Below, piece after piece: positions 5,639 through 26,525 of a DNA stretch of 64,000 bases. Source of the stretch: a virus. Under the pieces are notes generated by a model that was given only the letters and a program-made list of their open reading frames with translations, was not told the DNA's origin and did no database searches. The stretch's first letter is position 1; the number at the start of each line of letters is the position of its first letter. The translations under genes were made by a program, and so were the position numbers. The stretch spans positions 32,001-96,000 of IMG/VR virus record IMGVR_UViG_3300021079_000001; one strand, 5' to 3'.

Positions 5639-8434
5639 ATGAGTTCATATCTATCCCAACCACGTCAGTATAATGCATATGTTCCCGAAATCAACTCGGA
5701 AATGTATGGTAAATTACTTGAACAGAAAAAAGAAGCCTACGATAAAGGTGTACAGAAAATCGATAATACTATCACACAGGTAGCTTCATTACCAGTATAC
5801 AGGGAAGATGATAAAAAGCATCTACGAGATCTTGTAGAAGGGATAACAACTGAACTTAACCAGCAACATGGAGCAGACTGGAGTGACCAGCATCTCAATA
5901 ACCTAACTACCAGGCACATATCAGCTATTGCTAATGATCCTAGAGTACAAAGTAATGTCGCATCTACAATGCAAGCTAAGTCATACATGCAAAAGATGAA
6001 AGACGACTATGAAACTAATGGAAATAAGGCTGTATATAACCAGAAGGATGGAGAAGCAGAGATACAAAGTTGGTTACAGAACCCTGATGGTATGGCAAAG
6101 TTTAATCAGGACTATTTTGGTTATCATGATCCTGTTGGAGACTTTGGTAAATTCTTTAAAGACAAAAAACCTAATAGTAGAATATCTGTACAATATGCAG
6201 GTAATCATTATGATCAGAATGGTAATGTCATGAAAGATGCTAAAGGGAGGGCTATCATGGATACTAAATTAGCTGCACAAACATGGGAAGCTAAGATAGA
6301 GAAATGGAAGGAAATATCCCCCATAGAAGTACAACAAGAGTGGCAGGAATTCATAAAGACCAATCCAGCATATCAAAAACAATTAGAGATAAATGCCAAG
6401 TATACAACAACTTCTCCCCAAGAAGTTCTTAGTCTAGCTGTAAAGACAAAGACTAATGAAATACAAACACAGCAACGAGCTGTACAAGAAGCTAATCTAC
6501 AAATGGGATTACTTCCTGCTGGTGATCCTAATAGAGAGTCTCTTCAAAAAGATATAAACTACTATACTGCTAAGTTAGAAGATAATAAGAAGTTATTAGA
6601 TCCTAGCTTCCTGGAGAAAAAGAGAAGAGAGTTTGAAACTGATCCGTCAAGTATGGATAAGTTTAAGTACTCAGTATATGTAGATAGCCTAAATGATATG
6701 ATTGCCAGGAGATATTCATACGTAGAGGACCATGATGTGAAACTAGAAGGTATGTCTCCGGAACAAAGAAAGGATAAGAATGAGACACTGGAACAGGGAC
6801 GACAAAGGATAGCTATAGAACAGGAAAGATTGAAAATAGCAGAAAGACATGAACGACTATGGGAGTCTGCTGCTGCTGCTAAACAAAAAAAAGCAGAAGG
6901 TTTAGACCATGCCAGTGAATATGGGGCTAATACTAAAACAAAAGATAATGCTACAGAATTTACAAATCAAAAAGATGAAAAAGCATTGAATATAGTTAAT
7001 TCAACTAACGACTACATGTTCAACACATGGGGTAGAAAATATGCAGATGCTTTTGATGTAGATGAGAATAATAAACCACATCTTAAATCAGTAATACCTA
7101 GTCCTAAAACAGATAAAGAGAAGGAGATAAATGATGCTATATTCAATGTACAGGAATTATATAATCAACAGAAAGATGCATTCTCAGGTAAGACTAAATT
7201 GCAACTAGGACCTGTTACAAAAAACCATTTTAACAGTATTAGTATGCAAGACAGACTAGTAGATGCTATGGGTAATGTGTTAAAACAAGGTCAGGATGCA
7301 TTTACAAAAACTCCTGAATATCTGGATCAACAGCGTGGTATAAATGCAATTGCTGATCATGCTAATGAATTTGCCAGTGCGTATGGGTTTAATGGTACAA
7401 CTGTAAGGAAATTTGCATTAACTCTGAAGAATCTAAAGAAAGATAACCCTGTAGAGGCTAATAACTTTATAAATAGAGTTTTAAATAAAGGTACGGATAG
7501 TCTCAATCTCTGGGCGAGTAATCAACCTACTTCTGGTGAGATGATAGTAGTTAAGAAGTTGTCTCAAAATCTATTAGGTATTAGTAATCCATCATCTGCC
7601 GATATACAAAAATTAAAAGGAATGATAGGATCAATATACTCTATAGATAAGCTATTGAAAGGTACTGGTGCTGAAAGTCCATTAGATGTATACAATAAAG
7701 GGCTGGATAAGGAAAATAGCTTCATGGGTAATTACTTAACTGCTAATAATTACTTGGTTAACCAACAGTATATACCATGGTTAATTACTGAGAAATCAGG
7801 TAAGGAAGTAAGACCATCTGATGATTTAATAGTTCCTTTACTACATGGTGTACCTTCTAAGTTACTGCAGAGTAAAGAAGCACAAGGCGTAGGATTTGTA
7901 CAGGATGTAGGTACCGGGCAATTCAAAATGGTAATAAAAGGCTCTAAAGGAAAAGATGAAGAATTTCCTATAACCAGACAAGAGGCTATAGATAATGGAG
8001 CATCTGACTTACAGACTGAAGATGAATTAAGCCAATTAATAAGAATTAATAAAAACAGGACAGGTGGCACATCATCTACTACCAGTAAAGATTGGGACGA
8101 CAGATCATTTTCAGATGCAGTACCTCTTACTGAGAAAGTGCTTAATGGTTCTCTGCAGGATATAAGGTATCATGTTAAACAGGAGAGTGGGCAATATTAC
8201 ATGGAACTCTGGGTAAAAGATCCTAATAATGAAAATGATAAAGGGCATCCTTATATAGATCCTGCAACTAAACAGATACTAACCGCTACTAATTCAAGCC
8301 TAACTAATATCAGAATATCTCTTAATAACTTCGCAAGAGGCAATTCACTTGCTGTACCTGCACAGTATTATGACTTTAATGACCGTTCTTATATGAGTTC
8401 AGATCAAAATCAAGATAATAATGCCGGACAATAA
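5639..8434 (+). CDS. Internal virion cargo/ejection protein (931 aa)
   Basis: Helical/coiled-coil N-terminus (YNAYVPE...LLEQKKEAYD); lies immediately upstream of the virion RNAP, as in crAss-like phages. Confidence 0.6.
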   Translation: MSSYLSQPRQYNAYVPEINSEMYGKLLEQKKEAYDKGVQKIDNTITQVASLPVYREDDKKHLRDLVEGITTELNQQHGADWSDQHLNNLTTRHISAIANDPRVQSNVASTMQAKSYMQKMKDDYETNGNKAVYNQKDGEAEIQSWLQNPDGMAKFNQDYFGYHDPVGDFGKFFKDKKPNSRISVQYAGNHYDQNGNVMKDAKGRAIMDTKLAAQTWEAKIEKWKEISPIEVQQEWQEFIKTNPAYQKQLEINAKYTTTSPQEVLSLAVKTKTNEIQTQQRAVQEANLQMGLLPAGDPNRESLQKDINYYTAKLEDNKKLLDPSFLEKKRREFETDPSSMDKFKYSVYVDSLNDMIARRYSYVEDHDVKLEGMSPEQRKDKNETLEQGRQRIAIEQERLKIAERHERLWESAAAAKQKKAEGLDHASEYGANTKTKDNATEFTNQKDEKALNIVNSTNDYMFNTWGRKYADAFDVDENNKPHLKSVIPSPKTDKEKEINDAIFNVQELYNQQKDAFSGKTKLQLGPVTKNHFNSISMQDRLVDAMGNVLKQGQDAFTKTPEYLDQQRGINAIADHANEFASAYGFNGTTVRKFALTLKNLKKDNPVEANNFINRVLNKGTDSLNLWASNQPTSGEMIVVKKLSQNLLGISNPSSADIQKLKGMIGSIYSIDKLLKGTGAESPLDVYNKGLDKENSFMGNYLTANNYLVNQQYIPWLITEKSGKEVRPSDDLIVPLLHGVPSKLLQSKEAQGVGFVQDVGTGQFKMVIKGSKGKDEEFPITRQEAIDNGASDLQTEDELSQLIRINKNRTGGTSSTTSKDWDDRSFSDAVPLTEKVLNGSLQDIRYHVKQESGQYYMELWVKDPNNENDKGHPYIDPATKQILTATNSSLTNIRISLNNFARGNSLAVPAQYYDFNDRSYMSSDQNQDNNAGQ

Positions 8435-11400
8435 CACAACTATACCAAGCACTGACCGTGGAATGAATGACAGGTCTTTAGATATTAATACAAGTTTGGC
8501 ACAGACTCAATCCGCATTTGAACAAGCAACCCAAGTGCATGAGATGCTACCTGTAGTAACACCAGGATTAGCTAAAGCACAAGCACCTAGTGGTGGAAGG
8601 AAAAGAGATGAGATGTATGATGCTTTTAAAGGGCTTACAGATCAAGTAGATAATGCTACAGCAAGACACCCTGAAGACAATTCGTATATATCTAAAGTGG
8701 ACCTACCTAAAGACTACGATAGATACCCTGTATACTATCAAGGTCTTAATAATGAAGATAGAGAAGGTAAACGACAAGGTACTCTGGAGAAATTAGGATA
8801 TGGTCTTGCTAGAGGATTAAATTCTGCCGGTAAAGTATTTGCTGATAATACAATAGGGCTTGTTGCCAACACAGCATCTTGGTTATCTGGAGGAGGTTTT
8901 ATTGACACTGATTGGAATAAAATGTCTAAAGCATGGGGAGACTCTGTAGAGAAATCTACTCCATTATACATAACAGATGCTGAAAAAAATAAGAATTGGT
9001 ATGACCCTACAGGATGGATAACAGGAAACCATATAGCAGGTCTCATGGAAAATATGGGCTTTGTGGCAGGGATGGCAGGTTCTATGTATGCATTTGGAGG
9101 ACTTGGGAATGCTGCTGAAGGTATTAGTGTAGGTAAGACATCTCTGCAACTGGGAGAAGTTGAAACAACTCTTGGAGCTCGTCTATCTGGTAATGTTGCT
9201 TATAAAGAAGGTGTAGCTAATTTGGCTAAAATTAATTCTGTAATAGGAGATGTACCTGAAGGAAGTAAATGGGCAGCTCAGATAACAGAAGAAATTAATG
9301 GTGCTAAAACTGCACAAGATGTTGTAAAGGTAACTAAGAAGTGGAAAGATCTGGCAGAAACGTATTCTACTCAAGCTAAATTATATGGACAAGGTAAGAA
9401 TGCATTGATAACAGCTACTGCTAATTTGGGTATGGCAAGTGGTATGGGGTATGATGCTAATTTGAACTTTACCCAGAAAATGTATGATGAGATACGCACT
9501 AAAGAGAATAGAGAACCATCTGCTGAAGAAAAAGCTAAGATAAAAGAGTTGGCAGGAACTGTAGGTACAGTCACTACAGTACTGACTACATTAGCATCTA
9601 TGGTATCCTTTGGTGGTGTATTCAAAGGGTTATTGAATAAAGAAGGTACGGAAGTTGCACTCAGAGAGTCTATTGATGATATAATGATTAAAGGTGAGAA
9701 GGGGCAGCTATCAATGAAAGGTACACCTCATCTGGGAGAGACAGTCTATGAACCTTATAAATTCTCACCTACTGCTACTAGTAAGATTGGTCAATTTGGA
9801 CAGAAAGCCTGGGATGTTACTAAAAGAATAAGCGGAAAAGCTGGTACATTTATAGACCCTTGGGCAGGTGCAGGTATGGTAGAGTTTTCTACTATCTCAC
9901 CTACTGTAGAAAACTACTATGGTAAGAAATACATGACAGGTGAAGAAGATGTAGCTGGAGCAATAGGTAGCACTTTTAAAGATATGAGTATCAAGGATTT
10001 ATTGGGAACATTTGTAACCGGTATGCTGGCCCCTATGCCATTTGAAATAGCAGGTAAGTTAAGAGAAACTAAAGCTACAAAAGATAATACATCGGCTGCT
10101 GCAAAGGCATTTACTGATAACTATATGGGTGGTTATTTACATATGCTACAAGGCAGTATTAGCAGAGGTAAAGTAATATCCAGGGATATAGTAGAAAAAG
10201 AAAGAGTTGGAGATAAAGAAGGTGCCAATAATAGCAGAAGGGAGCAATGGGAAAGTTATTTATATCCTAGAATACGTCATGGTCAGAAATGGTTAGTTGA
10301 TCAAGATATACAGGGGTATCGTGAAGAAGTATCTACTGAAGAAGGTATACGTAGACTACAGGCCAAAGGAGAATTTCCTAAAGGGGATAATTTGTTGGAA
10401 CTGAAGGATAACTTCCTGGCACACTTGGATGAAATGAAGAAACAAGCAGATGCTGCTGAGAGTTATTATAAGGCTATTACACTGGAGTATGGTGGGTATA
10501 CAGATGCTGCAGGTAAAAGAATATTCAATGATGAGCATGTAGAGAAAATGATGTATCTCTCTGGCATGACAGATTACTCATCTGAAAGAATAGATAAAAT
10601 AGCTGGAGAACTTAGAACATCTGATGTATTAACCAGTTTATATAATGGTGCTGATAAAGACCTGAATAAGTTAATACTGGCACTTAGTAAACCGACAATA
10701 GATCCAGCAGTTGTTCGTGTAAAAGATATAGAAAGCAGTGCAAGAAGTATTGCTGATAAGTTATTCAAAGCTATTGCAGATAAGGTAAAAGATAATACAT
10801 TACCTATAGATAAAGCTAAAGAACTTAGAACTAAATTAGCTAATATAATAAGGTTCCAGGCAGATAAGAGTAACTATATCAGTGAGTATAAGAATATTAT
10901 TAATAACCCTGAAGCTCATACGGATAACATTAAAGAACAGTTAGTACCATCATCTACATCTGGTACTCCACAAGCAGCAGGAGAAACTAATGTTATCAAA
11001 GGTCCTACTATCAAGTTAATACATGGTAACAGTGTAAAAGATGACAAAGGAAAGACTGTACCCTCTGATATAGAAGTAGGTAAAGAGTACAGTGCAGGTA
11101 TGAAGATGGTACCAGCTAGTTACAAAGGGCATATAGGTAGTGTGGGGGAATTTGCACAATTTACAGTAGTAGGTGAACATTATAGAAAAGTGGAAGGACA
11201 AGTATACAGAGCAGGTCAGCCAGATATATCTCCTACACCATTACTTAATCCTGCAGGAGACCCTGTTATGAAAGGTCGTCATATAGATATCCAATATAAA
11301 CAAGGAGATTCTATATTACAAAAAGCAGTAAAAGCGGAACAGTTTGCTCAGTATAAACTGGTAAAAGTAGAAGACCTTGACAAGAATACCAACCTTAGTT

Positions 11401-14400
11401 GGTATATGAGAAATTATAAGAAAGGTGTGACTTTTCAATTTCAACATAATAACGACCTTGCTCGAAAAGAGGGATTTATTAAATACAACCCAGAAACCAA
11501 AGGGTTGGAGTTTGAGTATATAGGACCGGATGGAAAACCATTACGGAGACCTATAGATGCTAAAGATTTTAAACCAACACTAGATAAGGATGGTAATGTT
11601 CTGCATGAAGCCAGGATAAAATCTACAGGATTCAGTGTTCAGGAAATCCTCAGTAAGGAAGAGTATGAGAAAATGAAAAAGGATCAGGAAAGAAATGATC
11701 CTAATGGTCAGAAACGTGCACAGGCATTACTTACAATAGTCGGTGATCAATGGAGAGAAGCTGATAACAAATTAAGAGAAATCAATGAGAATATAGCAGA
11801 GCATGAAGAGTACTTAAAGTTAGAGAAAGAATATCTGGATAAATGGCAAGAAAGCATTAAGGGTGAGAAAACTTCCTCAAAGAAAATACAGACTGTACTA
11901 GGAAAGATTAGAGTAGCTAATGAAGAATACGATAAACTACAGGAGCATCTGGAGTCTATGTATGAACAGCGTGATGATCTTAAAGGCCAGTTAGAGTACT
12001 TGCAAGGAACATTGCGTGATATAGAAGATCTCGGTCTTGGTAAAGAAGTAATGGATAAGATACAAGAGTCTCAGGATAGTATGAAAGAGATGATTGGCCA
12101 TAATGAACTTGCCACAACTGCTTTAGAAACTGCTGTAGGAAAACTAAAGGATTTTATAAGTAAGTTATATAGTACAATTGCTAATAAAATAAAGAGGTTT
12201 ACTCGTGAATATATTAATGCTCCTGATAATGCCACTAGAGAACTGAGGGCTATTATGGTAGCATCTAAAGAAGCTATTGAAGAACAATCATATGAGCAAG
12301 GTGGCAGAAGAGAAGAAGACAAAGCTCTTCAGATGATTGACTGGTTTGAAAAATATCCAGATTATTTTAAAGACCGGGAAGAAATAGAAGGTGAAAGTTC
12401 TAAAGTAGATCTAACTGAACAGGAAATAAAAGACCTGCAGGATAAAATAGCTGAAGTACAAGCAGAGACTAAAAACTTCAGATCTCAGTTGAAAGCAAGT
12501 GAGAAACTGTTAAGTACTCTTAAAGAAAAGTGGGATGCTTGGATGAAAGAAGATGAAGTCAACAAGTTATTCAAAAGAGCATCAACCAGTGGTAATGTAG
12601 CTAATTCTATAGATTCTTTTCAATCCAGAATGAATGCTGGTATACAAGGTTCTGTAGAAGGTACCACCCAGGAACTACAAGAACAAAAGCATCCAGAGGT
12701 TACTGTATTCCAGACTAAACCCTCTGTAGAAAATTATGCATCTACAGTAGTTATACATGAAGATAGTGCGTTTCCAGATAGCCCTTTATTTACTGGTTAT
12801 GTAGGAAATGAGAATGTGTATCACACACTTACTGTAGATGGAGAACAGATACCCTGGTGGAAAAGAGAAGCGTCTTTATTCAATAAAGTATCCCAAGGTC
12901 ATCAACCTGAAGGTACTACAGGCACTGTAAAGGCTGTTCCTATACATGTAGGAAACCAAGAAGCTAGTGGGTATACAGGCTTTTTACCTGACTCTTATGA
13001 GTATGCTGGAGAAACTATACAGAACTCAGATGCAAAGAGAGGTACATTAGCAGTACTGTATGTGTATGAAGATGCAAATGATAGTAATGTATATTGGACG
13101 GTAGACAAAGAAGGTAATAAATTACGTAAAGTAGATGAAGTACCTACAGATGAAACAGAAAAACAAGAGTATTATAATAACCTAACATACGGTATATTAA
13201 GAAGTGGTGAACTGGAAGGTATCACTGAGTCTGCTAAAGGAAGAGATGCCGGTAAGAAGTTTAATGATGTACCATCTGATCCTGCAGAAAAGGCTCGTCT
13301 TCAGTTAATAATAGATGACTTCCGTGAAGGGCTTATGAAGAGGGATAATATATGGCCAGTTCTTGATGGCAATTTATCCCAGGGAATATTGAAGATAAGT
13401 AAAGACCAGAACGGTAAGACTGTTATCAGAAATCATTCAGTAGCAGATGCTGGTGTAATAACTACTGAACAACTTAGCATTCCTGGTACACTAGAAGTAG
13501 CTGTCAACCCAGATGCTGTTAGCCCTAAGATGGGTATACTATCTACAGGTAGCAGAGGGTTCTTAGGTCGTACATACATTAATACAGCTACAGGTAGTTA
13601 CATGGTTAATACCCGTAGAATACAGCCACATGAAGCACCTAATCTATTCAAGTTAATACAGAAGGTTGCTAAAGGGATGTATGATGCTTTTAACAAGGCT
13701 GCAGGTGATACAGGAAAAGAAAAAACAGCATTAACCACATATACAAATTCTGCAGAGGCAAAAGAGATACAACAATTCTTAGGTGATATGTTGTACTATA
13801 AAGCTCCTGCCAAAGGTACTTCCGGAGAACGTGGTATGATATACTTTGGCCAACATGCTGAAGTAAATGAGAGTGGTAACCAGGTACTTGTAAGAGGATT
13901 ATATATACATGGAGTAGACGATAAGGTCAATTTCTATCCAATTGCTGATTTACTAACTAATGAAGATGCTCGTATAAGAATAGAAGCTCTTATAGGTGGT
14001 ATAGAAGATGGTCAGCCTGGGTTATTCCACAATGTTAATAATGTAACATTAAAGAACCCTCTGGAAGCATGGAACCATTTAACAGTTAATGAAGATGGCA
14101 CCTTGTCCAGAGAGAAGTGGTCTAACTATCAACATTATCTACTATCTGGAGAACGTCCAGATGGTACTAAAAGAAAGACAGGTATAGGTGGTGATATACC
14201 TGTATCTACAAATGCTATTAAACCACAGGGTATAGAGAGCCCTATAGTAGGTAGAATGTTTAAAGTTAGACATACTGATCCTGCACATGAGTATAAAGCA
14301 CCAGAAAAGAAAGCACCTGAAAAAGCACCAGTCTCAGCACCACCATTACCATCTTTATCTGGAGATGTAAAAGAGGAACCTATTAAGATACAAGTAGCAG

Positions 14401-17400
14401 GTAAAGATAAATATGTACGTATAGGAGGAGACCCACAGGAACTCATAATGGCAGATGTTGTCAAGGATGGTGAGGTTATACCTGGTTCTAAAGTAGATGT
14501 TAAGGTATACAGAGGTGCTGATAATAAAATAGTTGTAGAACCTATTGCTATAAATGGTGAACGTGTACCAGAAGATCTTATAGCAATAAAAGCTACAACT
14601 AATGTATGGCAAGACCGACTTAATGCTAATGATAAGGCACCTATTGCTAAACAACCTACTACATCTGCAGTTATTAAGATTGATATAGCTGGAGAACTTA
14701 CTGATGTAAAAGTACAAGATGCTGTACAGTTCTTTCCAACGAAAGATACTGTAAGAGATGGAGAGACTATAAAAGGTGTTTCAGTAGGAGTTAAAGTATC
14801 AAGAGGTGTTGATGGTAAGATAATAGTAGATCCTGTATCTATTGATGGTGAATCCGTTCCAGAAGATTTAGCAGCAATTAGAGCTACTACAAATGTATGG
14901 CAAAGCAGATTACAAGATAAAGATGCAACTGCTGTAACACCGACACCTGTCACTAGTACACCTGTATCAGATATAGATGCTAAAAAAGCTGAGATAGAAA
15001 AAAGAAAACAAGAAGAATTAGCTATAGTTCCTACAAATAATAATAAAGATGTTTCTACATTTGTTTCTGGATTTAGAAATACTTTTGATAAATTAATGGA
15101 TAAATTAAATATAGATAAAAGTGATAAAACAAGTAGAGCTAAGATTAATGAAGTTTTTAGAAGATATGGTTATGGAACTACAGATGAAATAGATGAGAAT
15201 AAAGCAAATCAACTATATAAAGATTATGCTAAAAAAATACATCCTGATAAATTTCAAGATGAAAATATTAAAAATATTGCAACTGAGTTTATATCACAAT
15301 TAAATGAAGCTAAAAAAGAAGGTAATGTAACAGCTTTAAATAATATTTATAGATTATTTATAGAAGAAAAATATAATGCAGAACTAGCAGCATTAGATAA
15401 AGAAGAAGCAGGTACTACGGAAGAAGCTAAGAGAGGTGATATAGAAAAGTATAAAAAGCTAAAGGTAGAACTTACAGGACAAGGTAAAACTTTTGAGATA
15501 GAAGTTATAGGGGATAAAAGACCATTTTTACTCACTGTAGATATAGGAACTGGAAGGTTTACTCTTTGGGGAGATAAACAACCTGACGGAACATATAGAA
15601 CTACACAAGATCTCCCCTCTGCTGAGGATGTACAAAAACTTGTAGATAAGTATATACCAAAGGAGTTATCAGATGCCCTGACAAAATGGAGTCAGGAGAG
15701 AAACTCTGGTTCTTTAGAAACAAGACTTGATAGAGCAGATGTAGCAGAACAAGAAGTACTGAAACTTACAAAAAAACCTATAACTACAAATAGCTATGTA
15801 CCACCATCTGCACCATTTCCTGATGCTAATCTGAGGACTATACAACCAGGTGAAGTAGCTGTACAAGATGCTGCTAAGAAAGAACAACTTGGGCAATTCC
15901 TAAAAAGAGCATTACCACAACTTACTCTTCAGGAAAGTGATGATATTATCAGATTAGCAGGTAGACCTGAAGCATGGGGAATGACTAAAGGTAACCTCAT
16001 TACACTTTATAAAAGTGCTCCTGAAGTAGCAGGATATCATGAATCATTCCATCCGGTTATAGATCTTCTTGCTACAAACAGAGAGAAGAAGGATATGTAT
16101 AATGAGTTTAGAAATAGGAAGGGTGGTTTCTATGATTTGGAAAGTAGTAAGATGATCAGATATAAAGATGCTACTGATTTCCAGATTAATGACCAACTAT
16201 CTGAAGAGTTTGGAAAATTCAAAGTCACTGGGCAGTTGATGGATGTAGCACCTATGAAGAAGAATTTCTTCCAGAGGCTGTGGAATGCATTGAAAGCATT
16301 ATTCCATACACCTACTACTATACATGATATATTCCAGGCAGTAGAAAAAGGAGAGTTTGCTACAAGAGAACTTAGAGAATATAAAGGGACAGAAAACTTA
16401 TCAGCTATCAGGAGTCTGCAGGAGAAGGGTATATCAATGCAGACTATTAATACTACAGTAAGAGGTGTAGTGGGAATGGTAGGTGCCAGACTTAGGACAG
16501 AACCGGGTATATGGCAAAAGCTAAGGAAGGGTGAAATGACTGAAGATGATCTACTTAATCCTATAAAGGAAGAGCTTATCCGTACCAATTGGCATGATGT
16601 AGTTACTAACTGGGAAGATTTCCGTAAAGAGATCATAACTGTACTACATGCTAATGGTCTAAAATCAACTAAGGGTAAATTAGTAAAGGATGGTATCAAA
16701 AGCTCTGAAGATATTAAAGAGACGAGAGGGGAAGATGCTAACAACAAAGATTATGCTGTAGATAAATTAATGCTGGATTCTAAAGTTAATGCTGCAGCCG
16801 AAATAAGAGCGTTATACAATTTTAATATACACGCACAGTTTCCTCAAGATAGAAGGCATTCAAAGAGTAATAAACCATTACAGGAATATAATCCTGATAT
16901 GGAGTTACCACCAGCTATAAGAGAAACTAATGGTATGCCAAAAATGGTAGGAGATAATAAAGACTGGTATCTCACCATGTCAGCATTAGCTAATACTACA
17001 GGTCTGGAGAATATTAAAAAGAAGTTCAGAGAATTAGCTGCACAGAACCCTAATTTGGTACGTATATACAAAGCTGTATTCGGAGAAGAAGGGGCTCAGA
17101 TGACCATTGATCAGATCAAGTTGCAGAACTTATTTATAAAGACATTCAACAAGCAGAATATCAATGATATGATGACTGTTATTGAAGAGAATGGGAATGT
17201 CTTTGGTAATAATATTAATAAAAATGCTGCTGCTAGACAGAAAATAGGAGAGTTCTTATCTAATATCAGGGGAATGTACAATCCTGCCAAACCAAGTGAA
17301 AGTATTGTAGCAATAGATCGGTATGGTAATTACACTTTCAAAAAAGGCAGTGAACCTAAGTTATCTATAACTACTAATGCAGCACAAAATGAACGTAATG

Positions 17401-20400
17401 CTCTGCAGTTTCTAAAGAATATAGGATTTGAATTTCCTGAAAGTATATTCAAACGGTTAAAGAACCAGTCAGATAAAGAGAAAGTAGTAGGAGTTGCCAG
17501 TAAGATAGCAGGATTACTTCCTAAAATCTCCACTAAAGGCGGTGTATTCACTATGGAGTCTATGGATATACAAGGTCCTATTAATGAACTAGCCCGATTA
17601 TATGTAAAAGCTGCAGGTGATGATAAGTCTACTAACTACAGTAACATTAACAGTGAGTCTCAAAGTGCTTATACGGATTACAATAAAATAGCTGAAGTAG
17701 CTATTACTATTAACCAAGTTGGACATTGGGATCAATTACCTGATCACTACAAGACTGACCCATGGTGTCAAGAGTCTCAGTTAATGTCTAAAGGTGGTTT
17801 ATTGTTTCATGAAGATGGTAAGAAAAGAGATAATATGGATATTGTCCCTACTATTACCAGTGGCTTAAAAGTGGGTAACCGGGTAGTGACCAATGACCGG
17901 ATGAATATGGGTACACGTTTAGTACAAGGTATCAATATGAATGCTGAAGGTGTATTCTACAATATACTAAATGCAGATGCTAAAACTGAGTGGGGTCTAA
18001 ATATAGGTAATGGTAAGATGTATATATCTCCATCTACATATAGGATAAAGGCCGATAGAAATAAAAAAGTTAGCAAAATATTCAATGGTTACTTAAAAGC
18101 AGAGATAGAGACTATTAAAGATTTTGATAACCGTAGTCAATTCTCACAACTGAATAAGAAAGTAGGAGATACTGTTATAGGTAAACAGTTACGGTTCTTT
18201 AAGGATATGCTCCCTGAAGATATGGTCAAGAAGATAGAAGACTATGCTAACAGTGATAGTCCTATATCTACTTCCCAATTTGTAGAGTCTTTACCTGGTC
18301 TACAGGATGCTATAGAAGCACATATAGAAAAGCTGGTAAAATCCCAAAAAGAAGAACTGATAAAAGAAGGTGTTATAACTAACCACGAAAGTGGTATGTA
18401 TAACTTCTATGGGCTATCTTCAGATCATGTAGATAAAGAACTGCAGCTAGGTAAGAAACAAACAGAGGATGGTGTTACTGAAAGATTGTATAGTTCTGAA
18501 AACATTGATGATATCATTAGATTCAGAACACTTAACTACATGATTCATAATACTGAATTATTTAAAATGGTAGGAGGAGATCCTGGTATATGGACAGATA
18601 TAGCTAAAAGGTTTAAGTTATTCCAATCTGTTAAAGAGTTTACAGCTAATGGTACTAATACCGGCAGTTTAAGAGGAGTACAGGCAGACCATTACAACAA
18701 GGTGGGTGAACATCAGTTATTACCCGGACAAGCTGGATACACAGACTTTTCTGATACTTTGTATATACTTACTTATGCTGATGAGAAGAACATGCAGTCC
18801 TACAACCATGAACAACTTAATAAAGTTGCCGGTAGTGAGGAATACTCTAGCATGATTATCAACGATGGTCAATCTTATTTATCTCCTACAGCATATAGAC
18901 AACAGGGTATACGTAATGGTACATGGGATAATATTCCAGGGCAAGAAGATGCCTATCAGTATGATATGGCCAAATTCAGGCAAGATGCTGATAAAAGGTA
19001 TAAAGCAGGAGAAAGTAAGTTTGAAGGATTTCAATATACAGATGATGCTGCAGGTAAGTCATTGAGAACTGCAGATGAAAAATTAGTACAGAAAGGTGAC
19101 CCCGATATATATGGTTCTACATATATCAAGAAACCTATGGCTATAGGCAACTACGCATTAACTGATAGATTAACACCATACGCCATTAAGACCTCTTCAT
19201 TGGGACTTACCTGGGGTCTTGTAGAAGGTAAAATGCTAGAAGATAAATTCCTTTATATGTTAAAGGAAAATATAGGACATATGGGTTCTATTTCACAGTT
19301 GAAAATAGGTGGTCTTGTAGATCCACCTAGCCTATATAACAAGGAAGGTAAGTTTGGATTAACAGAGATGGATGCAAAGGCCCACAGGATGCCAATATCA
19401 TGGAGTGACTGGGGTATTATATCTGAAACAGCTGGTGAACACCATGAAGTAAGTATGGTAAGTCAAGCTAATAAACTGATTACACAGACATTATTCAGCA
19501 ATTCTACACCAGTCACTTTTAAAGGTACACCTGAAGATTGGTCAAGATTACCTGAAAATAAAAAACTAGAGAATGAACAATATCGTCAATATAAAGAGAT
19601 TAATAGTTCATTAAGTGCTTTATCTAAGAAAGGTGAAGAGGAGATAATGCATATAGCCGGACTAGTACAAGTAGCTGGAGGTTATAAGGTAGAACAACTG
19701 GGTAATATTGTTACATATATATCAGGTGAAGTAGCCAGAAGAGAACAAGCTGCTAATATTAAAGACGGGTTAGATGTAGAATATGATGAGAATACCGAGA
19801 CTGAAAAACTATTGAATCCTATAGAGTCATTGCCCAACTTCTCTCAGGTAAAGAATATTATCAATTCTCTAATAGATAAAAAGATAACCAGAAGAAAAGT
19901 TAATGGTGGCCAGAAAATAATAGTATCTGTAGTAGGATTTGAAAATAACGAAGATGGTATACGTAGAGATAAAGATACAGGTAAACTTATAGCAGACAGA
20001 TTAACATTCCATGAGTTAGTAGAAAATGGTAAAAAGGTTACCAGGATGCAGGTATTTATGCCAAACTTTATGAAGGCTAAGTTAGAAAAGAACTGGGCTG
20101 AAAAAGGTATAACACCACCATCTAAGAAGGCATTATTTAAATATCTGAGTTCTAAAGAAGGTAATGAATTATTAGTAGGTCTCGGTTTTCGTATACCTGT
20201 AGAAGGATTGAACTTCATGTCATCTTTTGAAATAGTTCCATTCCGAGAAGAAAATATTATTAAAGGTATAGAAGGTGAAATGTTTATGCCTTCTTCATAC
20301 GGAGATGCTATAGTAGTACCTGCAGAAATGTCTACTAAGGATAGCTCTGACTTTGACGTGGATAAGATATCTACATATCTACCTAATTTTTATACAGATG

Positions 20401-23400
20401 AAAAAGGATTGCCACGAATGTTCAAGTTTATTGATTATGATATTGCAGGTGATCATGATAAAGAACTTACAGCAATATGGGAACAGAAAAAACAGCTGTT
20501 GCCTGATAATATAGAAGATGCTGATGACTTATTTGAACAAGTATCAGAAGGTGTATCCGGTAAGACTATCCGTGAGTTATCAAGAATGGAAAAAGAGTTA
20601 GCTAAAAAGATAAAAGCTCTTGACCAATCATTAGAAGATTTCTTAAAGGAAAATAGAGGTAAATCTCCATATGATGTTAATAGCAAAGAAGCTATAGAAA
20701 ACAAGTTACAAATGGATATGGATGGTGTTCTTAGGCATCCTGATAACTTTGATCAGCTGGTGCATGTGAACAGTGCAGAACAAATGAAGAAGGCTACTAA
20801 AGATATCCAGAAGCTGAAAGAGAGTCAATTGCCTGATGACAAAAAGACACAATCCAGGGATAAGGATGATATCAATTATTCTGAAGTACTAGATCCTGTA
20901 TATGTATCACAACAACGTCAGGATATGTTGGATAGTAAGTATAGGATAGGTATAGGTGCACAGAATAATACTGGTCACTCTTTAGCTCAAAGTGCCAAGT
21001 ATCCTATAGTAGTAAGAGGTACTAAGTTAACAGAAAAAGATGCCGAATTAATACCAGTAGGTGCAGATGGTAAATTAGACTGGCAAATACATCTTCCCCA
21101 TAATGATGCTACTAAATTATGGTATGATAGAAACAGTAATACATGGAAAGATGCTGTAGCTACCTTATCTGGTAATAAAGTTAACAATCAATATATAGCA
21201 GAGTTACTTGCACAGTATATAGATGGTGCTGTTGATGGTCCTAAAGATCCATGGTTAATGAAAGTCTTCCCTTCACAAGATGCATTATCTACAGCAGTAT
21301 TTCTTACTCGTACAGGTGTACCTATTAATGATGTAGTATTGCTGATACACCAACCTGCAGTTCTTAAACTAATAGAAGAGCGTAATAAATACCAGACTCG
21401 TAGAAACCTTGATCCTAATGCCAGAGTACCTAGAAAAGAGGTAGTGAATAATGTAAGGAGTTTATATCCAGGTAATTGGATGCCTGTATCTGGTAACTTA
21501 GATAGGAATATCATGAAAGAGCAAGTGGCTCTGAGTGGTGCTAATAAAAAAGTTGATAATGCTTTCCAACAACAAGTGTTGACAGAATACTTAAAGTATG
21601 AGATGTATGCCAACCATGCTTTTAGAACACAAATAGGAACACCATATGATCTTATAAGTTCTCCAGATGCAGCTACTATGTATGCACAAAATAGAGCGTA
21701 TGAAAACTCTTTACAAAACAATGTAATATCCTCACCTATTAATATAGTAGAAGATAGTTTTCTAGCTGCTAGAAAGAAAAGTCTTAATGAAGCAGTAAAA
21801 ATGATAGGTGCTGTTATGGAAAGTTCTTCAGAAGCATTTATAAAACAAATTGAACCAATATGGAAAGCTCTTACTCATCCTGATGTAATAATGAAAAATG
21901 ATGACAGGATTGCATCTATGAATAAAGCCATTGTAAAATTCGTAGATTTTTTATCAAGTAGGTACCACATGCCTACAGGTATACCGATTGCTGATGGTAT
22001 AAAACAACTCATGATGAGTAATGCTATACCCAAGTTATTGAAAGAGGCACAGCTAAAACATCCTGATAATAAAGCTATACAAGCACTTAGTGTAGATATA
22101 CCTATATTCTCCAGGGACATGAAGAATGTGGTTATGTTCAAAAAACCAAAAGGTGCTGATGCTGATATGCTTACACAATACTTCAGAGAGTTTAGAGATT
22201 TTGGTCCTGAAGAGAAAAAGTTGTACGATAACCTTGTAATACTGGATAGACTACAATATGGTGCTACTGATAGGTTGAAAGCGTATGGCAAGTTCATACC
22301 TGCTGAAGATGCAGTTATTGCTCCTAAAGCTGGAATGAAAATGCTCAATGACATACCTTCAGCTGTACAGACATTTATAGAGACTAACCAATTCTATAAG
22401 AACGGTTGGAATGATGAAGAACTTGTACCATCTGTTAAGAAGTTTAATAGAAGTAAGAATATAGAAGGGTTAAAAAACAGAGTAGTTACACTAAAGAAAG
22501 GGAGTTGGGGTTCTACATCAGCGGCAGTTAAGATATGGGAATATATCAATCCGGATACAGGTAGGAAATACACAGATAGAGAAGTTGAAGAACTAGCACT
22601 AAAAGGGTTTAAACCTAAAACTGTACCTGAATTATACCGTAGAATAGAAAATAGTGAAGGAGAGCCTGTGATAATTAAAGATGCTAAAGGTGTAGAGTAC
22701 TACTCCTATAAACAGATTAATGCACTAGGAGATGGGCCTAACTTACAGGAATATTATGAAGATAATAGACCATCTGTACGTGATATGCATTTTAAAATAG
22801 AAGAAGAGGATAATAATAAAGTAAGATCAGCATTAGAAAAAGATGGATGGCAGATGGAAGAACCTGTAAAGAAAGAAGTGTTAGATGCTATGAAATCTCA
22901 ACAACCTGTAGTACCTTCACAGCGTATAACTAGTAGTAGAGTGAAACCTAACGAAAAGGGTGAGTATAATATATATGCAGGTACTGGAGAGAATGTAACA
23001 CTCTCTAATATGACTAATAGACCATTCACTATAGGAGGGTCTGAGTACAAGTCGGTTGAACAGTACTTCCAACTACAAAAGTATCAGATAGCTGGAGTAA
23101 TAGAACCTATAAGTGAGCAATACTCAGCACAAGTATACAAGAAGATAGGAGAGATGGCAGATGCTATAGATAAACCGAATATATCAGGATATGAAGCTAA
23201 GAAGCTAGGAGGCATTAGAATACCCAACAGTAAGTTCGATGAAGTATTCTGGGATAAGGAGGGTAAACAAGCTATGAAGACAGCTATGAAAGAGTCATTC
23301 AAGCAGAATCCAGAGTCACTCAGAGATCTACTGGCTACCGGGGATGCTAAGTTGACTCATACACAGGATAAAGGGAAATGGGGTGCTGAATTCCCTAGAC

Positions 23401-23504
23401 TACTGACCGAAGTACGTGATGAACTACGTAAGACAGAGAAACTACTAGAACCTTCGAACCTGAAGGAACAGAATAAAGCAGATGAATGGAAACCTAAGTG
23501 CTAA
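8421..23504 (+). CDS. Giant virion-packaged DNA-dependent RNA polymerase (crAss-like, fused two-barrel), polyvalent
   Basis: 5027 aa. Catalytic DFDVDK at 20349-20366, preceded by GFRIP and NDGQSY motifs. Also N-terminal Gly/Ala hydrophobic segments, coiled coil, zincin YHESFH, HPD J-domain-like insert and C-terminal NADAR. Confidence 0.88.
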   Translation: MPDNNTTIPSTDRGMNDRSLDINTSLAQTQSAFEQATQVHEMLPVVTPGLAKAQAPSGGRKRDEMYDAFKGLTDQVDNATARHPEDNSYISKVDLPKDYDRYPVYYQGLNNEDREGKRQGTLEKLGYGLARGLNSAGKVFADNTIGLVANTASWLSGGGFIDTDWNKMSKAWGDSVEKSTPLYITDAEKNKNWYDPTGWITGNHIAGLMENMGFVAGMAGSMYAFGGLGNAAEGISVGKTSLQLGEVETTLGARLSGNVAYKEGVANLAKINSVIGDVPEGSKWAAQITEEINGAKTAQDVVKVTKKWKDLAETYSTQAKLYGQGKNALITATANLGMASGMGYDANLNFTQKMYDEIRTKENREPSAEEKAKIKELAGTVGTVTTVLTTLASMVSFGGVFKGLLNKEGTEVALRESIDDIMIKGEKGQLSMKGTPHLGETVYEPYKFSPTATSKIGQFGQKAWDVTKRISGKAGTFIDPWAGAGMVEFSTISPTVENYYGKKYMTGEEDVAGAIGSTFKDMSIKDLLGTFVTGMLAPMPFEIAGKLRETKATKDNTSAAAKAFTDNYMGGYLHMLQGSISRGKVISRDIVEKERVGDKEGANNSRREQWESYLYPRIRHGQKWLVDQDIQGYREEVSTEEGIRRLQAKGEFPKGDNLLELKDNFLAHLDEMKKQADAAESYYKAITLEYGGYTDAAGKRIFNDEHVEKMMYLSGMTDYSSERIDKIAGELRTSDVLTSLYNGADKDLNKLILALSKPTIDPAVVRVKDIESSARSIADKLFKAIADKVKDNTLPIDKAKELRTKLANIIRFQADKSNYISEYKNIINNPEAHTDNIKEQLVPSSTSGTPQAAGETNVIKGPTIKLIHGNSVKDDKGKTVPSDIEVGKEYSAGMKMVPASYKGHIGSVGEFAQFTVVGEHYRKVEGQVYRAGQPDISPTPLLNPAGDPVMKGRHIDIQYKQGDSILQKAVKAEQFAQYKLVKVEDLDKNTNLSWYMRNYKKGVTFQFQHNNDLARKEGFIKYNPETKGLEFEYIGPDGKPLRRPIDAKDFKPTLDKDGNVLHEARIKSTGFSVQEILSKEEYEKMKKDQERNDPNGQKRAQALLTIVGDQWREADNKLREINENIAEHEEYLKLEKEYLDKWQESIKGEKTSSKKIQTVLGKIRVANEEYDKLQEHLESMYEQRDDLKGQLEYLQGTLRDIEDLGLGKEVMDKIQESQDSMKEMIGHNELATTALETAVGKLKDFISKLYSTIANKIKRFTREYINAPDNATRELRAIMVASKEAIEEQSYEQGGRREEDKALQMIDWFEKYPDYFKDREEIEGESSKVDLTEQEIKDLQDKIAEVQAETKNFRSQLKASEKLLSTLKEKWDAWMKEDEVNKLFKRASTSGNVANSIDSFQSRMNAGIQGSVEGTTQELQEQKHPEVTVFQTKPSVENYASTVVIHEDSAFPDSPLFTGYVGNENVYHTLTVDGEQIPWWKREASLFNKVSQGHQPEGTTGTVKAVPIHVGNQEASGYTGFLPDSYEYAGETIQNSDAKRGTLAVLYVYEDANDSNVYWTVDKEGNKLRKVDEVPTDETEKQEYYNNLTYGILRSGELEGITESAKGRDAGKKFNDVPSDPAEKARLQLIIDDFREGLMKRDNIWPVLDGNLSQGILKISKDQNGKTVIRNHSVADAGVITTEQLSIPGTLEVAVNPDAVSPKMGILSTGSRGFLGRTYINTATGSYMVNTRRIQPHEAPNLFKLIQKVAKGMYDAFNKAAGDTGKEKTALTTYTNSAEAKEIQQFLGDMLYYKAPAKGTSGERGMIYFGQHAEVNESGNQVLVRGLYIHGVDDKVNFYPIADLLTNEDARIRIEALIGGIEDGQPGLFHNVNNVTLKNPLEAWNHLTVNEDGTLSREKWSNYQHYLLSGERPDGTKRKTGIGGDIPVSTNAIKPQGIESPIVGRMFKVRHTDPAHEYKAPEKKAPEKAPVSAPPLPSLSGDVKEEPIKIQVAGKDKYVRIGGDPQELIMADVVKDGEVIPGSKVDVKVYRGADNKIVVEPIAINGERVPEDLIAIKATTNVWQDRLNANDKAPIAKQPTTSAVIKIDIAGELTDVKVQDAVQFFPTKDTVRDGETIKGVSVGVKVSRGVDGKIIVDPVSIDGESVPEDLAAIRATTNVWQSRLQDKDATAVTPTPVTSTPVSDIDAKKAEIEKRKQEELAIVPTNNNKDVSTFVSGFRNTFDKLMDKLNIDKSDKTSRAKINEVFRRYGYGTTDEIDENKANQLYKDYAKKIHPDKFQDENIKNIATEFISQLNEAKKEGNVTALNNIYRLFIEEKYNAELAALDKEEAGTTEEAKRGDIEKYKKLKVELTGQGKTFEIEVIGDKRPFLLTVDIGTGRFTLWGDKQPDGTYRTTQDLPSAEDVQKLVDKYIPKELSDALTKWSQERNSGSLETRLDRADVAEQEVLKLTKKPITTNSYVPPSAPFPDANLRTIQPGEVAVQDAAKKEQLGQFLKRALPQLTLQESDDIIRLAGRPEAWGMTKGNLITLYKSAPEVAGYHESFHPVIDLLATNREKKDMYNEFRNRKGGFYDLESSKMIRYKDATDFQINDQLSEEFGKFKVTGQLMDVAPMKKNFFQRLWNALKALFHTPTTIHDIFQAVEKGEFATRELREYKGTENLSAIRSLQEKGISMQTINTTVRGVVGMVGARLRTEPGIWQKLRKGEMTEDDLLNPIKEELIRTNWHDVVTNWEDFRKEIITVLHANGLKSTKGKLVKDGIKSSEDIKETRGEDANNKDYAVDKLMLDSKVNAAAEIRALYNFNIHAQFPQDRRHSKSNKPLQEYNPDMELPPAIRETNGMPKMVGDNKDWYLTMSALANTTGLENIKKKFRELAAQNPNLVRIYKAVFGEEGAQMTIDQIKLQNLFIKTFNKQNINDMMTVIEENGNVFGNNINKNAAARQKIGEFLSNIRGMYNPAKPSESIVAIDRYGNYTFKKGSEPKLSITTNAAQNERNALQFLKNIGFEFPESIFKRLKNQSDKEKVVGVASKIAGLLPKISTKGGVFTMESMDIQGPINELARLYVKAAGDDKSTNYSNINSESQSAYTDYNKIAEVAITINQVGHWDQLPDHYKTDPWCQESQLMSKGGLLFHEDGKKRDNMDIVPTITSGLKVGNRVVTNDRMNMGTRLVQGINMNAEGVFYNILNADAKTEWGLNIGNGKMYISPSTYRIKADRNKKVSKIFNGYLKAEIETIKDFDNRSQFSQLNKKVGDTVIGKQLRFFKDMLPEDMVKKIEDYANSDSPISTSQFVESLPGLQDAIEAHIEKLVKSQKEELIKEGVITNHESGMYNFYGLSSDHVDKELQLGKKQTEDGVTERLYSSENIDDIIRFRTLNYMIHNTELFKMVGGDPGIWTDIAKRFKLFQSVKEFTANGTNTGSLRGVQADHYNKVGEHQLLPGQAGYTDFSDTLYILTYADEKNMQSYNHEQLNKVAGSEEYSSMIINDGQSYLSPTAYRQQGIRNGTWDNIPGQEDAYQYDMAKFRQDADKRYKAGESKFEGFQYTDDAAGKSLRTADEKLVQKGDPDIYGSTYIKKPMAIGNYALTDRLTPYAIKTSSLGLTWGLVEGKMLEDKFLYMLKENIGHMGSISQLKIGGLVDPPSLYNKEGKFGLTEMDAKAHRMPISWSDWGIISETAGEHHEVSMVSQANKLITQTLFSNSTPVTFKGTPEDWSRLPENKKLENEQYRQYKEINSSLSALSKKGEEEIMHIAGLVQVAGGYKVEQLGNIVTYISGEVARREQAANIKDGLDVEYDENTETEKLLNPIESLPNFSQVKNIINSLIDKKITRRKVNGGQKIIVSVVGFENNEDGIRRDKDTGKLIADRLTFHELVENGKKVTRMQVFMPNFMKAKLEKNWAEKGITPPSKKALFKYLSSKEGNELLVGLGFRIPVEGLNFMSSFEIVPFREENIIKGIEGEMFMPSSYGDAIVVPAEMSTKDSSDFDVDKISTYLPNFYTDEKGLPRMFKFIDYDIAGDHDKELTAIWEQKKQLLPDNIEDADDLFEQVSEGVSGKTIRELSRMEKELAKKIKALDQSLEDFLKENRGKSPYDVNSKEAIENKLQMDMDGVLRHPDNFDQLVHVNSAEQMKKATKDIQKLKESQLPDDKKTQSRDKDDINYSEVLDPVYVSQQRQDMLDSKYRIGIGAQNNTGHSLAQSAKYPIVVRGTKLTEKDAELIPVGADGKLDWQIHLPHNDATKLWYDRNSNTWKDAVATLSGNKVNNQYIAELLAQYIDGAVDGPKDPWLMKVFPSQDALSTAVFLTRTGVPINDVVLLIHQPAVLKLIEERNKYQTRRNLDPNARVPRKEVVNNVRSLYPGNWMPVSGNLDRNIMKEQVALSGANKKVDNAFQQQVLTEYLKYEMYANHAFRTQIGTPYDLISSPDAATMYAQNRAYENSLQNNVISSPINIVEDSFLAARKKSLNEAVKMIGAVMESSSEAFIKQIEPIWKALTHPDVIMKNDDRIASMNKAIVKFVDFLSSRYHMPTGIPIADGIKQLMMSNAIPKLLKEAQLKHPDNKAIQALSVDIPIFSRDMKNVVMFKKPKGADADMLTQYFREFRDFGPEEKKLYDNLVILDRLQYGATDRLKAYGKFIPAEDAVIAPKAGMKMLNDIPSAVQTFIETNQFYKNGWNDEELVPSVKKFNRSKNIEGLKNRVVTLKKGSWGSTSAAVKIWEYINPDTGRKYTDREVEELALKGFKPKTVPELYRRIENSEGEPVIIKDAKGVEYYSYKQINALGDGPNLQEYYEDNRPSVRDMHFKIEEEDNNKVRSALEKDGWQMEEPVKKEVLDAMKSQQPVVPSQRITSSRVKPNEKGEYNIYAGTGENVTLSNMTNRPFTIGGSEYKSVEQYFQLQKYQIAGVIEPISEQYSAQVYKKIGEMADAIDKPNISGYEAKKLGGIRIPNSKFDEVFWDKEGKQAMKTAMKESFKQNPESLRDLLATGDAKLTHTQDKGKWGAEFPRLLTEVRDELRKTEKLLEPSNLKEQNKADEWKPKC
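14382..14912 (+). repeat. Tandem duplication of an about 80-aa beta-rich domain inside the RNAP
   Basis: IKIQVAG...VPEDLIAIKATTNVWQDRL (14382-14621) versus IKIDIAG...VPEDLAAIRATTNVWQSRL (14673-14912). Confidence 0.9.
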
Positions 23505-25185: not shown

Positions 25186-25552
25186 TACTACAGTCAATGC
25201 GCAGATGTTCCAGAAACAACCTAAGAAGGAGGTTATGGGTCTACGTCAACTCTCCAGGGAATTGATGATGAGTGAGTATACTGTAGCTGAATATCCCGGG
25301 TTAGTGCTAAAGTTCCTACATGGAGGTATACTACAGGTAAAAGGAAAAGAAAGTACCCCACGTATATACCGGTATACCCTAGCCCATACTGAAGGGGTAT
25401 ACAGGATGACTACAGCCCCTCATCTGCTCAATGAACCCTGTACTATGGACATGAAGATAATGAAGAACCACATGACCCTCAGTAACACAGATGGTACAGA
25501 AATAATACATCTTAACAAAATTAAAATATGTGCATACGATAACTCAAAATAG
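25172..25552 (+). CDS. Hypothetical protein (host gene of the downstream homing endonuclease insertion)
   Basis: Overlaps the ATP-grasp stop; its C-terminus AYDNSK is repeated at the end of the next gene. Confidence 0.6.
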   Translation: MALNSTTVNAQMFQKQPKKEVMGLRQLSRELMMSEYTVAEYPGLVLKFLHGGILQVKGKESTPRIYRYTLAHTEGVYRMTTAPHLLNEPCTMDMKIMKNHMTLSNTDGTEIIHLNKIKICAYDNSK

Positions 25553-26525
25553 TTCTATAAGAAAGTTATCAGGAATATATAAGATAACCAATTCTATAAC
25601 TTTAGATTCTTACATAGGAAGTAGTACTACAATAGGTATTAGATGGGCTACTCATATACGAGAGGTAAAGTCTAATACACATGATAATGCCCATCTGCAA
25701 CGAGCAGTTAATAAATATGGAGTACAGAATTTTAAATTCGAAATACTTGCTACATGCCCCAATGAGTATCTATTCAGCCTAGAACAGTGGTTCATAGATA
25801 ACTTAAATCCGAGCTATAATATTGAACGTAATGTAAAGAAGTATATTACATGGAGTAAAACAGATGTACAAAAGAAAAATAGCACAACTATTGTACCGGA
25901 TCAAATAAATAAAGTTAGATATCTAGCAAAATCAGGAAGCAGTATTAGGGAAATAAGTAAGAATGTAAACATTAGTACAAGAAGTGTGTGTGATATTATA
26001 AATGCAAAAGGCAGATTCAAAGATTATACCCCTATTATAACAGGAAAGCTAAATAAAAAACTAAGTACTGCAGATAAAGAAAGTATAATAAAACTCTATA
26101 TAAATGAGGCTCATTCATACCAATCTATTGCTGACCTATATAAAGTCTCTAAGGCTACTATATTTTATATACTAAAGGATATAGACATTACTATTAAAAT
26201 GCAAGATCATGTATCTACATTAAATACTGCTATAGATGCAGTAAGAAAACAGGAAGTTGTTAAATTACTAAAAGGAGGAAAAGGCAATCATAAAAGTAGT
26301 AGAAGAAAAAAAGTATACCTCTATTATATTAATTCATATGATTTACTTGCTACCTTTGAATCTCAAGTAGAAGCTAGTAAAGTATTAGGTATTTCATCTT
26401 CTGGTATATCGCACAATATAAAAGGGTTAACTAAATTTATGACGTTATCAGGTAAAAGTATTATACAAGGTAAGGTCCAATTCACTGATAAGATACGAGT
26501 TAAAGCATACGATAATAGCAAGTAA
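25530..26525 (+). mobile_element. Free-standing GIY-YIG homing endonuclease with HTH/NUMOD1-type DNA-binding modules
   Basis: SGIYKITN...YIGSS...RWATH...FEIL...EQWFID...YN; C-terminal FESQVEASKVLGI; A-rich composition. Confidence 0.88.

Follow-up and report, generated by a model that had tools for sequence, protein, structure and literature searches.

What is a short, extremely AT-rich segment that reads like a J-domain doing in the middle of a giant phage RNA polymerase (RNAP) protein, and how did it come to be there? The segment lies at 14966-15404 of the 64,000-nucleotide (nt) stretch analyzed here (the window; positions 32,001 to 96,000 of IMG/VR record IMGVR_UViG_3300021079_000001, a complete virus genome of 111.4 kb with terminal repeats). 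It is part of one open reading frame (ORF) of 5027 amino acids (aa), at 8421..23504, whose product consists, from the N- to the C-terminus, of a region of about 2170 aa, a module bay, a crAss-type RNAP module and a NADAR domain. We found that the segment is an imported cassette, framed by two helices (opener and closer) between which near-identical phages hold different cargo. The cargo here is very probably a divergent J-domain, and we propose that it may recruit the DnaK of the host to the chain that carries it. The elements on which the argument depends are as follows.

8421..23504, plus strand: giant ORF, 5027 aa (ORF list, RNAP homology, Pfam NADAR)
14966..15404, plus strand, aa 2184-2330: cassette (unit 1) of opener helix, spacer, J-like domain and closer helix (limits from composition and from DNA and protein homology)
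14970..15020, plus strand, aa 2184-2200: opener bracket helix, DIDAKKAEIEKRKQEEL (DNA identity, silent sites, AlphaFold2)
15141..15359, plus strand: J-like core, with putative helix I AKINEVFRRYGY, helix II ANQLYKDYAKKI, the HPD loop and helix III IATEFISQLNEAKKEG (Pfam DnaJ, PDB profile, AlphaFold2)
aa 2265-2279, plus strand: LYKDYAKKIHPDKFQ (read in the ORF translation)
15240..15248, plus strand, aa 2274-2276: HPD tripeptide, cat cct gat (read directly)
aa 2287-2298, plus strand: ATEFISQLNEAK (read in the ORF translation)
15360..15398, plus strand: closer bracket helix, IEEKYNAELAAL (motif scan, silent sites)
15369-15395, plus strand, aa 2317-2325: closer motif KYNAELAAL (read in the ORF translation)
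15423..15776, plus strand, aa 2335-2452: unit 2, with degenerate opener EAKRGDIEKYKK, beta-rich cargo beginning LTGQGKTFEIEVIG and degenerate closer RADVAEQEVLKL (homology, absence in a near-identical relative)

An imported cassette in the module bay

The peptides quoted in an earlier, sequence-only reading of this DNA (DIDAKKAEIEKRKQEEL, LYKDYAKKIHPDKFQ, ATEFISQLNEAK, KYNAELAAL and EAKRGDIEK) are all in frame in 8421-23504, and the cassette contains KKIHPDKFQ. That reading had also described a conspicuously AT-rich block. A GC profile showed that the block has the lowest GC of the window, with 300-nt windows falling to 0.223 against a mean of 0.376 (standard deviation 0.037). At third codon positions, the GC content (GC3) of the cassette is 0.034, compared with an ORF mean of 0.238 (standard deviation 0.06), and the GC3 minimum of the whole ORF is at nt 14961. 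The GC3 values and an expected-GC test speak against a mere effect of Lys/Asn/Ile-rich content: the amino acids of the cassette, encoded with the codon usage of the ORF, predict a GC of 0.309, and 0.234 was observed. The anomaly is therefore at synonymous sites, as expected for imported DNA.

Comparison with other phages gave the same limits. When the whole window was compared by blastn with about 130 viral loci, only the cassette and its opener matched. Nucleotides 14966-15404 matched one contig (L127) with 76.6% DNA identity over 440 nt and a second one (L126) as well, and the limits of the match equal those of the cassette. These two contigs, the closest DNA copies, have 26-28% GC, so the cassette is compositionally at home in them. 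At the protein level, the block of homology shared with five other proteins (P0017-P0021) is restricted to aa 2172/2183-2328. Three of these (P0017, P0018 and P0019) share only the cassette with the window protein, at 57-70% identity, apart from one more weak N-terminal match (27%) in P0019 alone. No match was obtained by blastn of 14000-17000 (3 kb) or by tblastn of the cassette protein against the phage collection, in PHROGs for the cassette, or when window peptides were searched in viral and metagenome contigs. We also considered an intein or homing-element insertion and rejected it, as Pfam detected neither a Hint nor an endonuclease domain in aa 2182-2453; the insert is a plain in-frame domain. 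The sequence at 14966-15404 is thus a horizontally acquired, in-frame cassette in the module bay between the N-terminal region and the RNAP module.

Bracket helices and the exchange of cargo

Over nearly its whole length, the window protein shares 94-100% identity with two relatives, P0003 (4929 aa) and P0027 (5163 aa); it departs from them in three patches, namely aa 1201-1400, the bay (aa 1900-2460) and the C-terminal tail. The sequences flanking the bay (TPVTSTPVS before it and PITTNSYVPP after it) are the same in all three proteins, and the contents are as follows.

Window bay: J unit and second unit
P0003 bay: J unit alone (81% identity), with nearly all of unit 2 (aa 2341-2457) absent
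P0027 bay: unrelated non-J cargo and a different second unit

The first unit of P0027 shares with the other two only SDIDAQRAEI at its start and ELAALGKEGTGTTEE at its end, placing the breakpoints of exchange, as located at the protein level only, inside the opener and at the closer. The sequence-only reading had called the element a swappable cassette. Near-identical relatives do hold different cargo between the same motifs, and this is the most strongly supported result of our analysis. The same reading had noted a similar opener, EAKRGDIEK, at the start of the next module. This peptide (aa 2335-2343) begins unit 2, which has both a degenerate opener and a degenerate closer and is homologous to bracketed beta-rich units of four other giant proteins (P0004, P0005, P0009 and P0010) that end in NAELAALEG. 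By these sequence features, unit 2 is a degenerate member of the same bracketed design.

The bracket motifs are widespread. The opener shows 86-92% DNA identity over 52-63 nt in 7 otherwise unrelated viral loci, and AlphaFold2 predicts it to be a helix (positions 2-19, with confidence scores, pLDDT, of 85-88). At least 120 IMG/VR contigs contain back-translated KYDAELAAL, against a chance expectation of about 1, and in 119 of them it is inside a very long ORF; in 17 of the contigs the polymerase motif DFDxD follows 1400-2000 aa downstream, as in the window. Across phage giant proteins, the cargos framed by the opener DIEAKKADIERRRQEEL and the closer INAKYDAELAAL fall into at least 23 clusters that are unrelated to one another (32 non-redundant units), in a sample of viral loci that was drawn by the exact closer motif and may over-represent a recently spread subfamily. 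The minimal bracketed units, 41-43 aa long, are just a helix-loop-helix. Pfam found nothing significant in 10 other bracketed cargos.

In both brackets, particular synonymous codons are kept in spite of the codon bias of the surrounding sequence:

Closer, Ile ATC: observed 65%, background 11%
Closer, Ala GCA: observed 83%, background 34%
Closer, Leu CTA: observed 59%, background 11%
Opener, Ile ATA: observed 95%, background 40%
Opener, Leu TTA: observed 91%, background 49%

The earlier proposal that the flanking motifs bracket variable inserts and serve as recombination joints agrees with these findings, in that unrelated cargos lie between them, silent sites are kept in both, and the opener DNA is nearly the same in unrelated contigs. 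Because the brackets are conserved at the DNA level, they probably act as short homology arms for the exchange of cargo between co-infecting phages. At the protein level, the opener and closer helices probably pair and keep the ends of the cargo together. That the brackets are protease sites is less likely, as the closer of the window lacks the ALE(G) ending found elsewhere.

Bracketed units also occur in series. P0021 has at aa 1040-1280 a tandem array of three, consisting of an unknown cargo, a J cargo and a minimal 43-aa hairpin, and P0023 has within aa 1460-2125 a beta-rich unit followed by a J unit about 400 aa further on. Two bracketed cargos in other phage giants bear an HExxH motif (HEFIH and HELIH, in L041:14094-14930 on the minus strand and L105:2371-2985 on the plus strand, respectively); they could be zincin-like metallopeptidases, although Pfam finds nothing in them.

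The other two patches of low identity among the near-identical relatives lie outside the bay. A second site of swapping is the C-terminal tail (window 22880-23504, aa about 4825-5027): the window protein ends in NADAR, P0003 in a different tail with PF12694 and no NADAR, and P0027 in about 160 extra aa followed by NADAR. The third patch (window 12021-12620, aa 1201-1400) is 64-88% identical to P0003 with a 9-aa gap, in an N-terminal region that is otherwise 96-100% identical, and may be another exchanged module.

A divergent J-domain-like core

The HPD tripeptide occurs four times in the giant protein and is not significant on its own; its significance here comes from its conservation in relatives and from profile matches. 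An exhaustive HMMER search of 1.84 billion representatives gave 10 relatives of the domain, and scans of viral contigs added more. The resulting 20 sequences (19 distinct at 95% identity) are as little as 28% identical in pairwise comparison, and HPD is present in 20 of 20. The invariant columns of the trimmed alignment (A4) are two helix-II lysines, at -7 and -3 from the H, then H, P and D themselves, and a Q three residues on. Judged from the alignment, these columns would correspond to the surface that a J-domain presents to Hsp70.

Profile searches point in the same direction. With the A4 profile against all PDB sequences, J-domains rank top and make up about 19 of the 43 matches, all of them aligned HPD on HPD. 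They include dnj-2 of C. elegans (2qsa, E=0.0023), DnaJ of E. coli (1bqz, E=0.014), the DnaJ-DnaK complex (5nro), DNAJA3, auxilin, Sis1 and DnaJ2 of T. thermophilus. An hhalign comparison with four E. coli J-domains gave P=2.6e-5, whereas the reversed template control gave P=0.1. In Pfam, DnaJ (PF00226) is the top match of the window segment, covering profile positions 13-50 (helix II, HPD and helix III). Nine of the 11 family members searched match DnaJ below the cut-off (best E=8.4e-4), and no other Pfam family is matched by more than two of the 11. The ESM Atlas gave a weak lead (score 0.84, one cluster 19% DnaJ).

Other searches were negative. Profiles with long flanks were too diluted against the PDB, A2 finding no J-domain and A3 only 2qsa at E=1.3. 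A phmmer search of the cassette against PDB sequences found no J-domain, and the A4 profile had no match in cellular genome contigs. The only short protein with this J-like domain, which it has at the C-terminus, is P0025 (246 aa; NCBI MBC7867390.1, Ferruginibacter sp.), encoded on a 1.8-kb contig binned to a Bacteroidota metagenome-assembled genome; its Pfam DnaJ match has E=0.0084, and it could be a phage fragment.

The predicted structure is compatible with a J-domain and is not decisive. AlphaFold2 produced four helices in J-domain order, including helices at 12-22, 32-46 and 54-73 with the HPD in the loop between the last two, that is, between helices II and III; a long final helix extends into the closer.

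Several observations weigh against the assignment. The window segment scores 13.6-16.4 bits, compared with a Pfam gathering cut-off of 27.8, and no family member reaches that cut-off. In our own mapping, the helix-II positions that match the basic residues R22 and R27 of E. coli DnaJ are N and D/E in the phage family. The confidence of the AlphaFold2 models is moderate (pLDDT 72-77), and helix I is predicted at low confidence. Foldseek and VIA-align searches with two AlphaFold2 models placed generic three-helix bundles, with Z of 7-7.8, above J-domains: in Foldseek J-domains appeared at E>1, at rank 2 for the first model and at ranks 21, 22, 38 and 44 for the second, and the top 50 of VIA-align contained no J-domain.

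Set beside PF00226 and the class III J-domain proteins, in which a J-domain and no other DnaJ region is found inside an unrelated protein, the phage domain has the same order of helix II, HPD and helix III, and the HPD is likewise invariant. A lysine matching K26 of DnaJ, an aromatic residue matching Y25 and a helix-III Phe are conserved in the phage family. The phage domain differs in staying under the Pfam cut-off, in its weakly predicted helix I, in its long helix IV running into the closer, and in its position in mid-chain in a 5027-aa protein. The J-domain named in the sequence-only reading thus holds up in its sequence, with an invariant HPD and J-domains at the top of the PDB profile search, but not at the level of the Pfam DnaJ search. 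We consider it very likely that the cassette encodes a divergent J-domain that falls short of Pfam's curated threshold, and we describe it as J-domain-like, a probable divergent member of PF00226 and not a curated one.

Possible roles of the domain and its place among known systems

The protein around the cassette had been read as a virion RNAP, and both a catalytic motif and homology agree with this identity.

20349..20363, plus strand, aa 3977: DFDVD, catalytic motif of crAss-type RNAP (regular expression)
22989..23393, plus strand: C-terminal NADAR domain (Pfam PF08719, E=9.7e-11)

A DFDxD motif whose fourth residue is I or V is the signature of the crAss-like virion RNAP (bioRxiv 10.1101/2020.03.07.982082). 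With aa 3700-4400 as query, tblastn found matches in 84 phage records, crAss-like RNAPs among them: g066 of Cellulophaga phage phi14:2, annotated as catalytic RNA polymerase subunit (E=5e-10 over 87% of the 701-aa query), and the putative RNA polymerase of many Bacteroides crAss phages (E about 1e-16). When each half of the giant protein was compared with PDB sequences by phmmer, neither an RNAP nor a J-domain was matched. The window protein resembles gp66 of phi14:2, the polymerase of the same bioRxiv study, in its DFDxD motif with V at position 4, and differs in length and build: gp66 has 2180 aa, whereas the 5027-aa window protein joins a long N-terminal region, the module bay and the NADAR tail in one chain. 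By homology the giant protein is a crAss-like virion RNAP, and, as its homologues suggest, it would be a part of the virion and pass from there into the host cell.

The HPD of a J-domain triggers ATP hydrolysis by Hsp70/DnaK, which locks the Hsp70 on a nearby client. In crassviruses, cargo proteins, RNAP-associated ones included, must partly unfold at constrictions of the tail, and refolding in the cytoplasm has been proposed (PMC10172136); this structural atlas of crAss001 names no chaperone. No phage-encoded Hsp70 was found, and because the phage lacks its own, we infer that the J-domain would recruit, in cis, the DnaK of the host, whose Hsp70 the sequence-only reading had already suggested for refolding. 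The giant protein would be pushed, partly unfolded, through the tail; the J-domain would bind host DnaK-ATP and trigger ATP hydrolysis; and DnaK would clamp neighboring unfolded segments of the same chain, preventing back-sliding and aggregation and helping the polymerase to refold. The bracket helices would serve as homology arms at which co-infecting phages exchange, add or delete cargos, and the paired brackets would hold the ends of the cargo together, so that any cargo could plug in. This scheme presumes that the protein is packaged in the virion and that its J-domain contacts DnaK, and likewise presumes when and why the two would meet. On balance we lean towards the whole explanation, in which an imported cassette, exchanged at its brackets, supplies a J-domain that recruits DnaK in cis for entry or refolding.

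The distribution of the domain weighs against a part of this explanation. The close relative P0027 has no J-domain, so the J-domain is dispensable for this phage type; most of the homologous giant RNAP proteins (P0004-P0016) lack it too, so that the J cargo is an accessory and not a core requirement.

An accessory of this kind could also be an effector. The domain would then be a real J-domain used in trans for host takeover, possibly freed by proteolysis at the brackets, and its capture of DnaK would change the heat-shock response or redirect chaperone capacity to the phage, as Rki does with DnaK and sigma-32. Rki (ORF 057w) of the T4-like phage RB43, the first functional phage-encoded J-domain protein, documents such a role (PMC3486835). 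Effector-like cargos of many unrelated kinds, some with HExxH, occupy the bay, and the J cargo is dispensable in P0027, as an accessory effector would be. However, no conserved protease site follows the closer (AALDKEE in the window, ALEG elsewhere), which leaves the cleavage putative, and the domain immediately precedes the RNAP module in a chain presumed to require refolding. We therefore regard an effector in trans as unlikely. Both phages would have a J-domain aimed at the DnaK of the host (a prediction in the case of the window), but Rki is synthesized after infection as a small protein of its own, whereas the window domain is part of a pre-made and presumably injected polyprotein. No sequence relationship to Rki was found by tblastn against the phage collection.

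Slightly less probable, in our estimate, is an action in the producing cell, where DnaK would keep the new 5027-aa chain soluble and competent for packaging, not act on it after injection. Very long multi-domain chains are typical Hsp70 clients, and a J-domain in cis suits either stage equally. The polymerase gp66 has been described as held in a self-inhibited state before packaging (bioRxiv 10.1101/2020.03.07.982082), which would fit such a role. The absence of the domain from P0027 and from most of P0004-P0016 argues against a general need in assembly, as it does against refolding by DnaK after entry. The least probable alternative, that the cassette encodes no J-domain but a helical bundle acting as a spacer or docking module, with the HPD loop kept as a structural turn or for another partner, has on its side the sub-threshold Pfam matches and the generic bundles at the head of the structural searches, but the in-register J-domains in the PDB profile search, DnaJ as the sole recurrent Pfam family and invariant columns that are exactly HPD and the helix-II lysines are not explained by chance.

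Recruitment of DnaK in cis, the explanation that we favor, has counterparts in other systems. Pam18/Tim14 with mitochondrial Hsp70 and Sec63 with BiP are translocon-tethered J-domains. As proposed here for the phage, a J-domain is placed where an unfolded chain emerges, and Hsp70 grips the chain and biases its movement. The difference is that their J-domain is on the channel and the phage one would be on the translocating chain; the role proposed for the phage is an analogy. A stronger form of this analogy, which we consider doubtful, would make the DNA-conserved arms of about 50 nt a dedicated cassette-exchange system and the J cargo a self-carried adaptor of an import motor on the Pam18/Sec63 principle, with host DnaK ratcheting the 5027-aa polymerase and the leading end of the genome inward and then assisting refolding. 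HopI1 of Pseudomonas syringae is a type III secreted effector with a C-terminal J-domain; like the window protein, as presumed here, it delivers a J-domain within an injected protein to engage the Hsp70 of the target. HopI1 differs in being bacterial, in acting on a plant Hsp70, in using another delivery machine and in having no cassette brackets.

The window protein also resembles the polyvalent proteins of phages and conjugative elements, reportedly described by Iyer, Burroughs, Anand, de Souza and Aravind in 2017, in being giant, probably injected and built from exchangeable modules; it differs in that its modules are framed by one specific helix pair conserved at the DNA level. Variable modules are present, and a Pfam search of both halves of the protein for the polyvalent marker domains (MuF, zincin-like MPTase) found none of them, only NADAR.

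Two neighboring genes may be mentioned here. A second giant ORF (window 26527-32310, 1927 aa) has a histidine-phosphatase domain (His_Phos_1) at aa 502-568 (E=1.2e-14) and probably encodes another cargo protein with an enzyme module. Between the two giants, at window 25530-26525, lies a homing-endonuclease-like ORF with GIY-YIG and helix-turn-helix domains (Pfam E=1.3e-6 and 5e-8), which includes the most AT-rich stretch of the window after the cassette (GC 0.263 near nt 26051).

In the literature we found neither a paper that links a J-domain in the RNAP to crAss-like phages nor one that contains the closer motif. Phage J-domain proteins as such are already known from Rki; what is new is the J-domain as a cargo and the comparison of three alleles. 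If our explanation is true, a J-domain in the injected chain would be a concrete answer to how crassvirus cargo of several hundred kilodaltons is refolded, namely by host DnaK in cis. The exchange of cassettes is seen directly, in three near-identical phages with three loads between the same DNA-conserved brackets, and the brackets offer a way to take stock of the payloads that are injected by one of the most abundant groups of phages.

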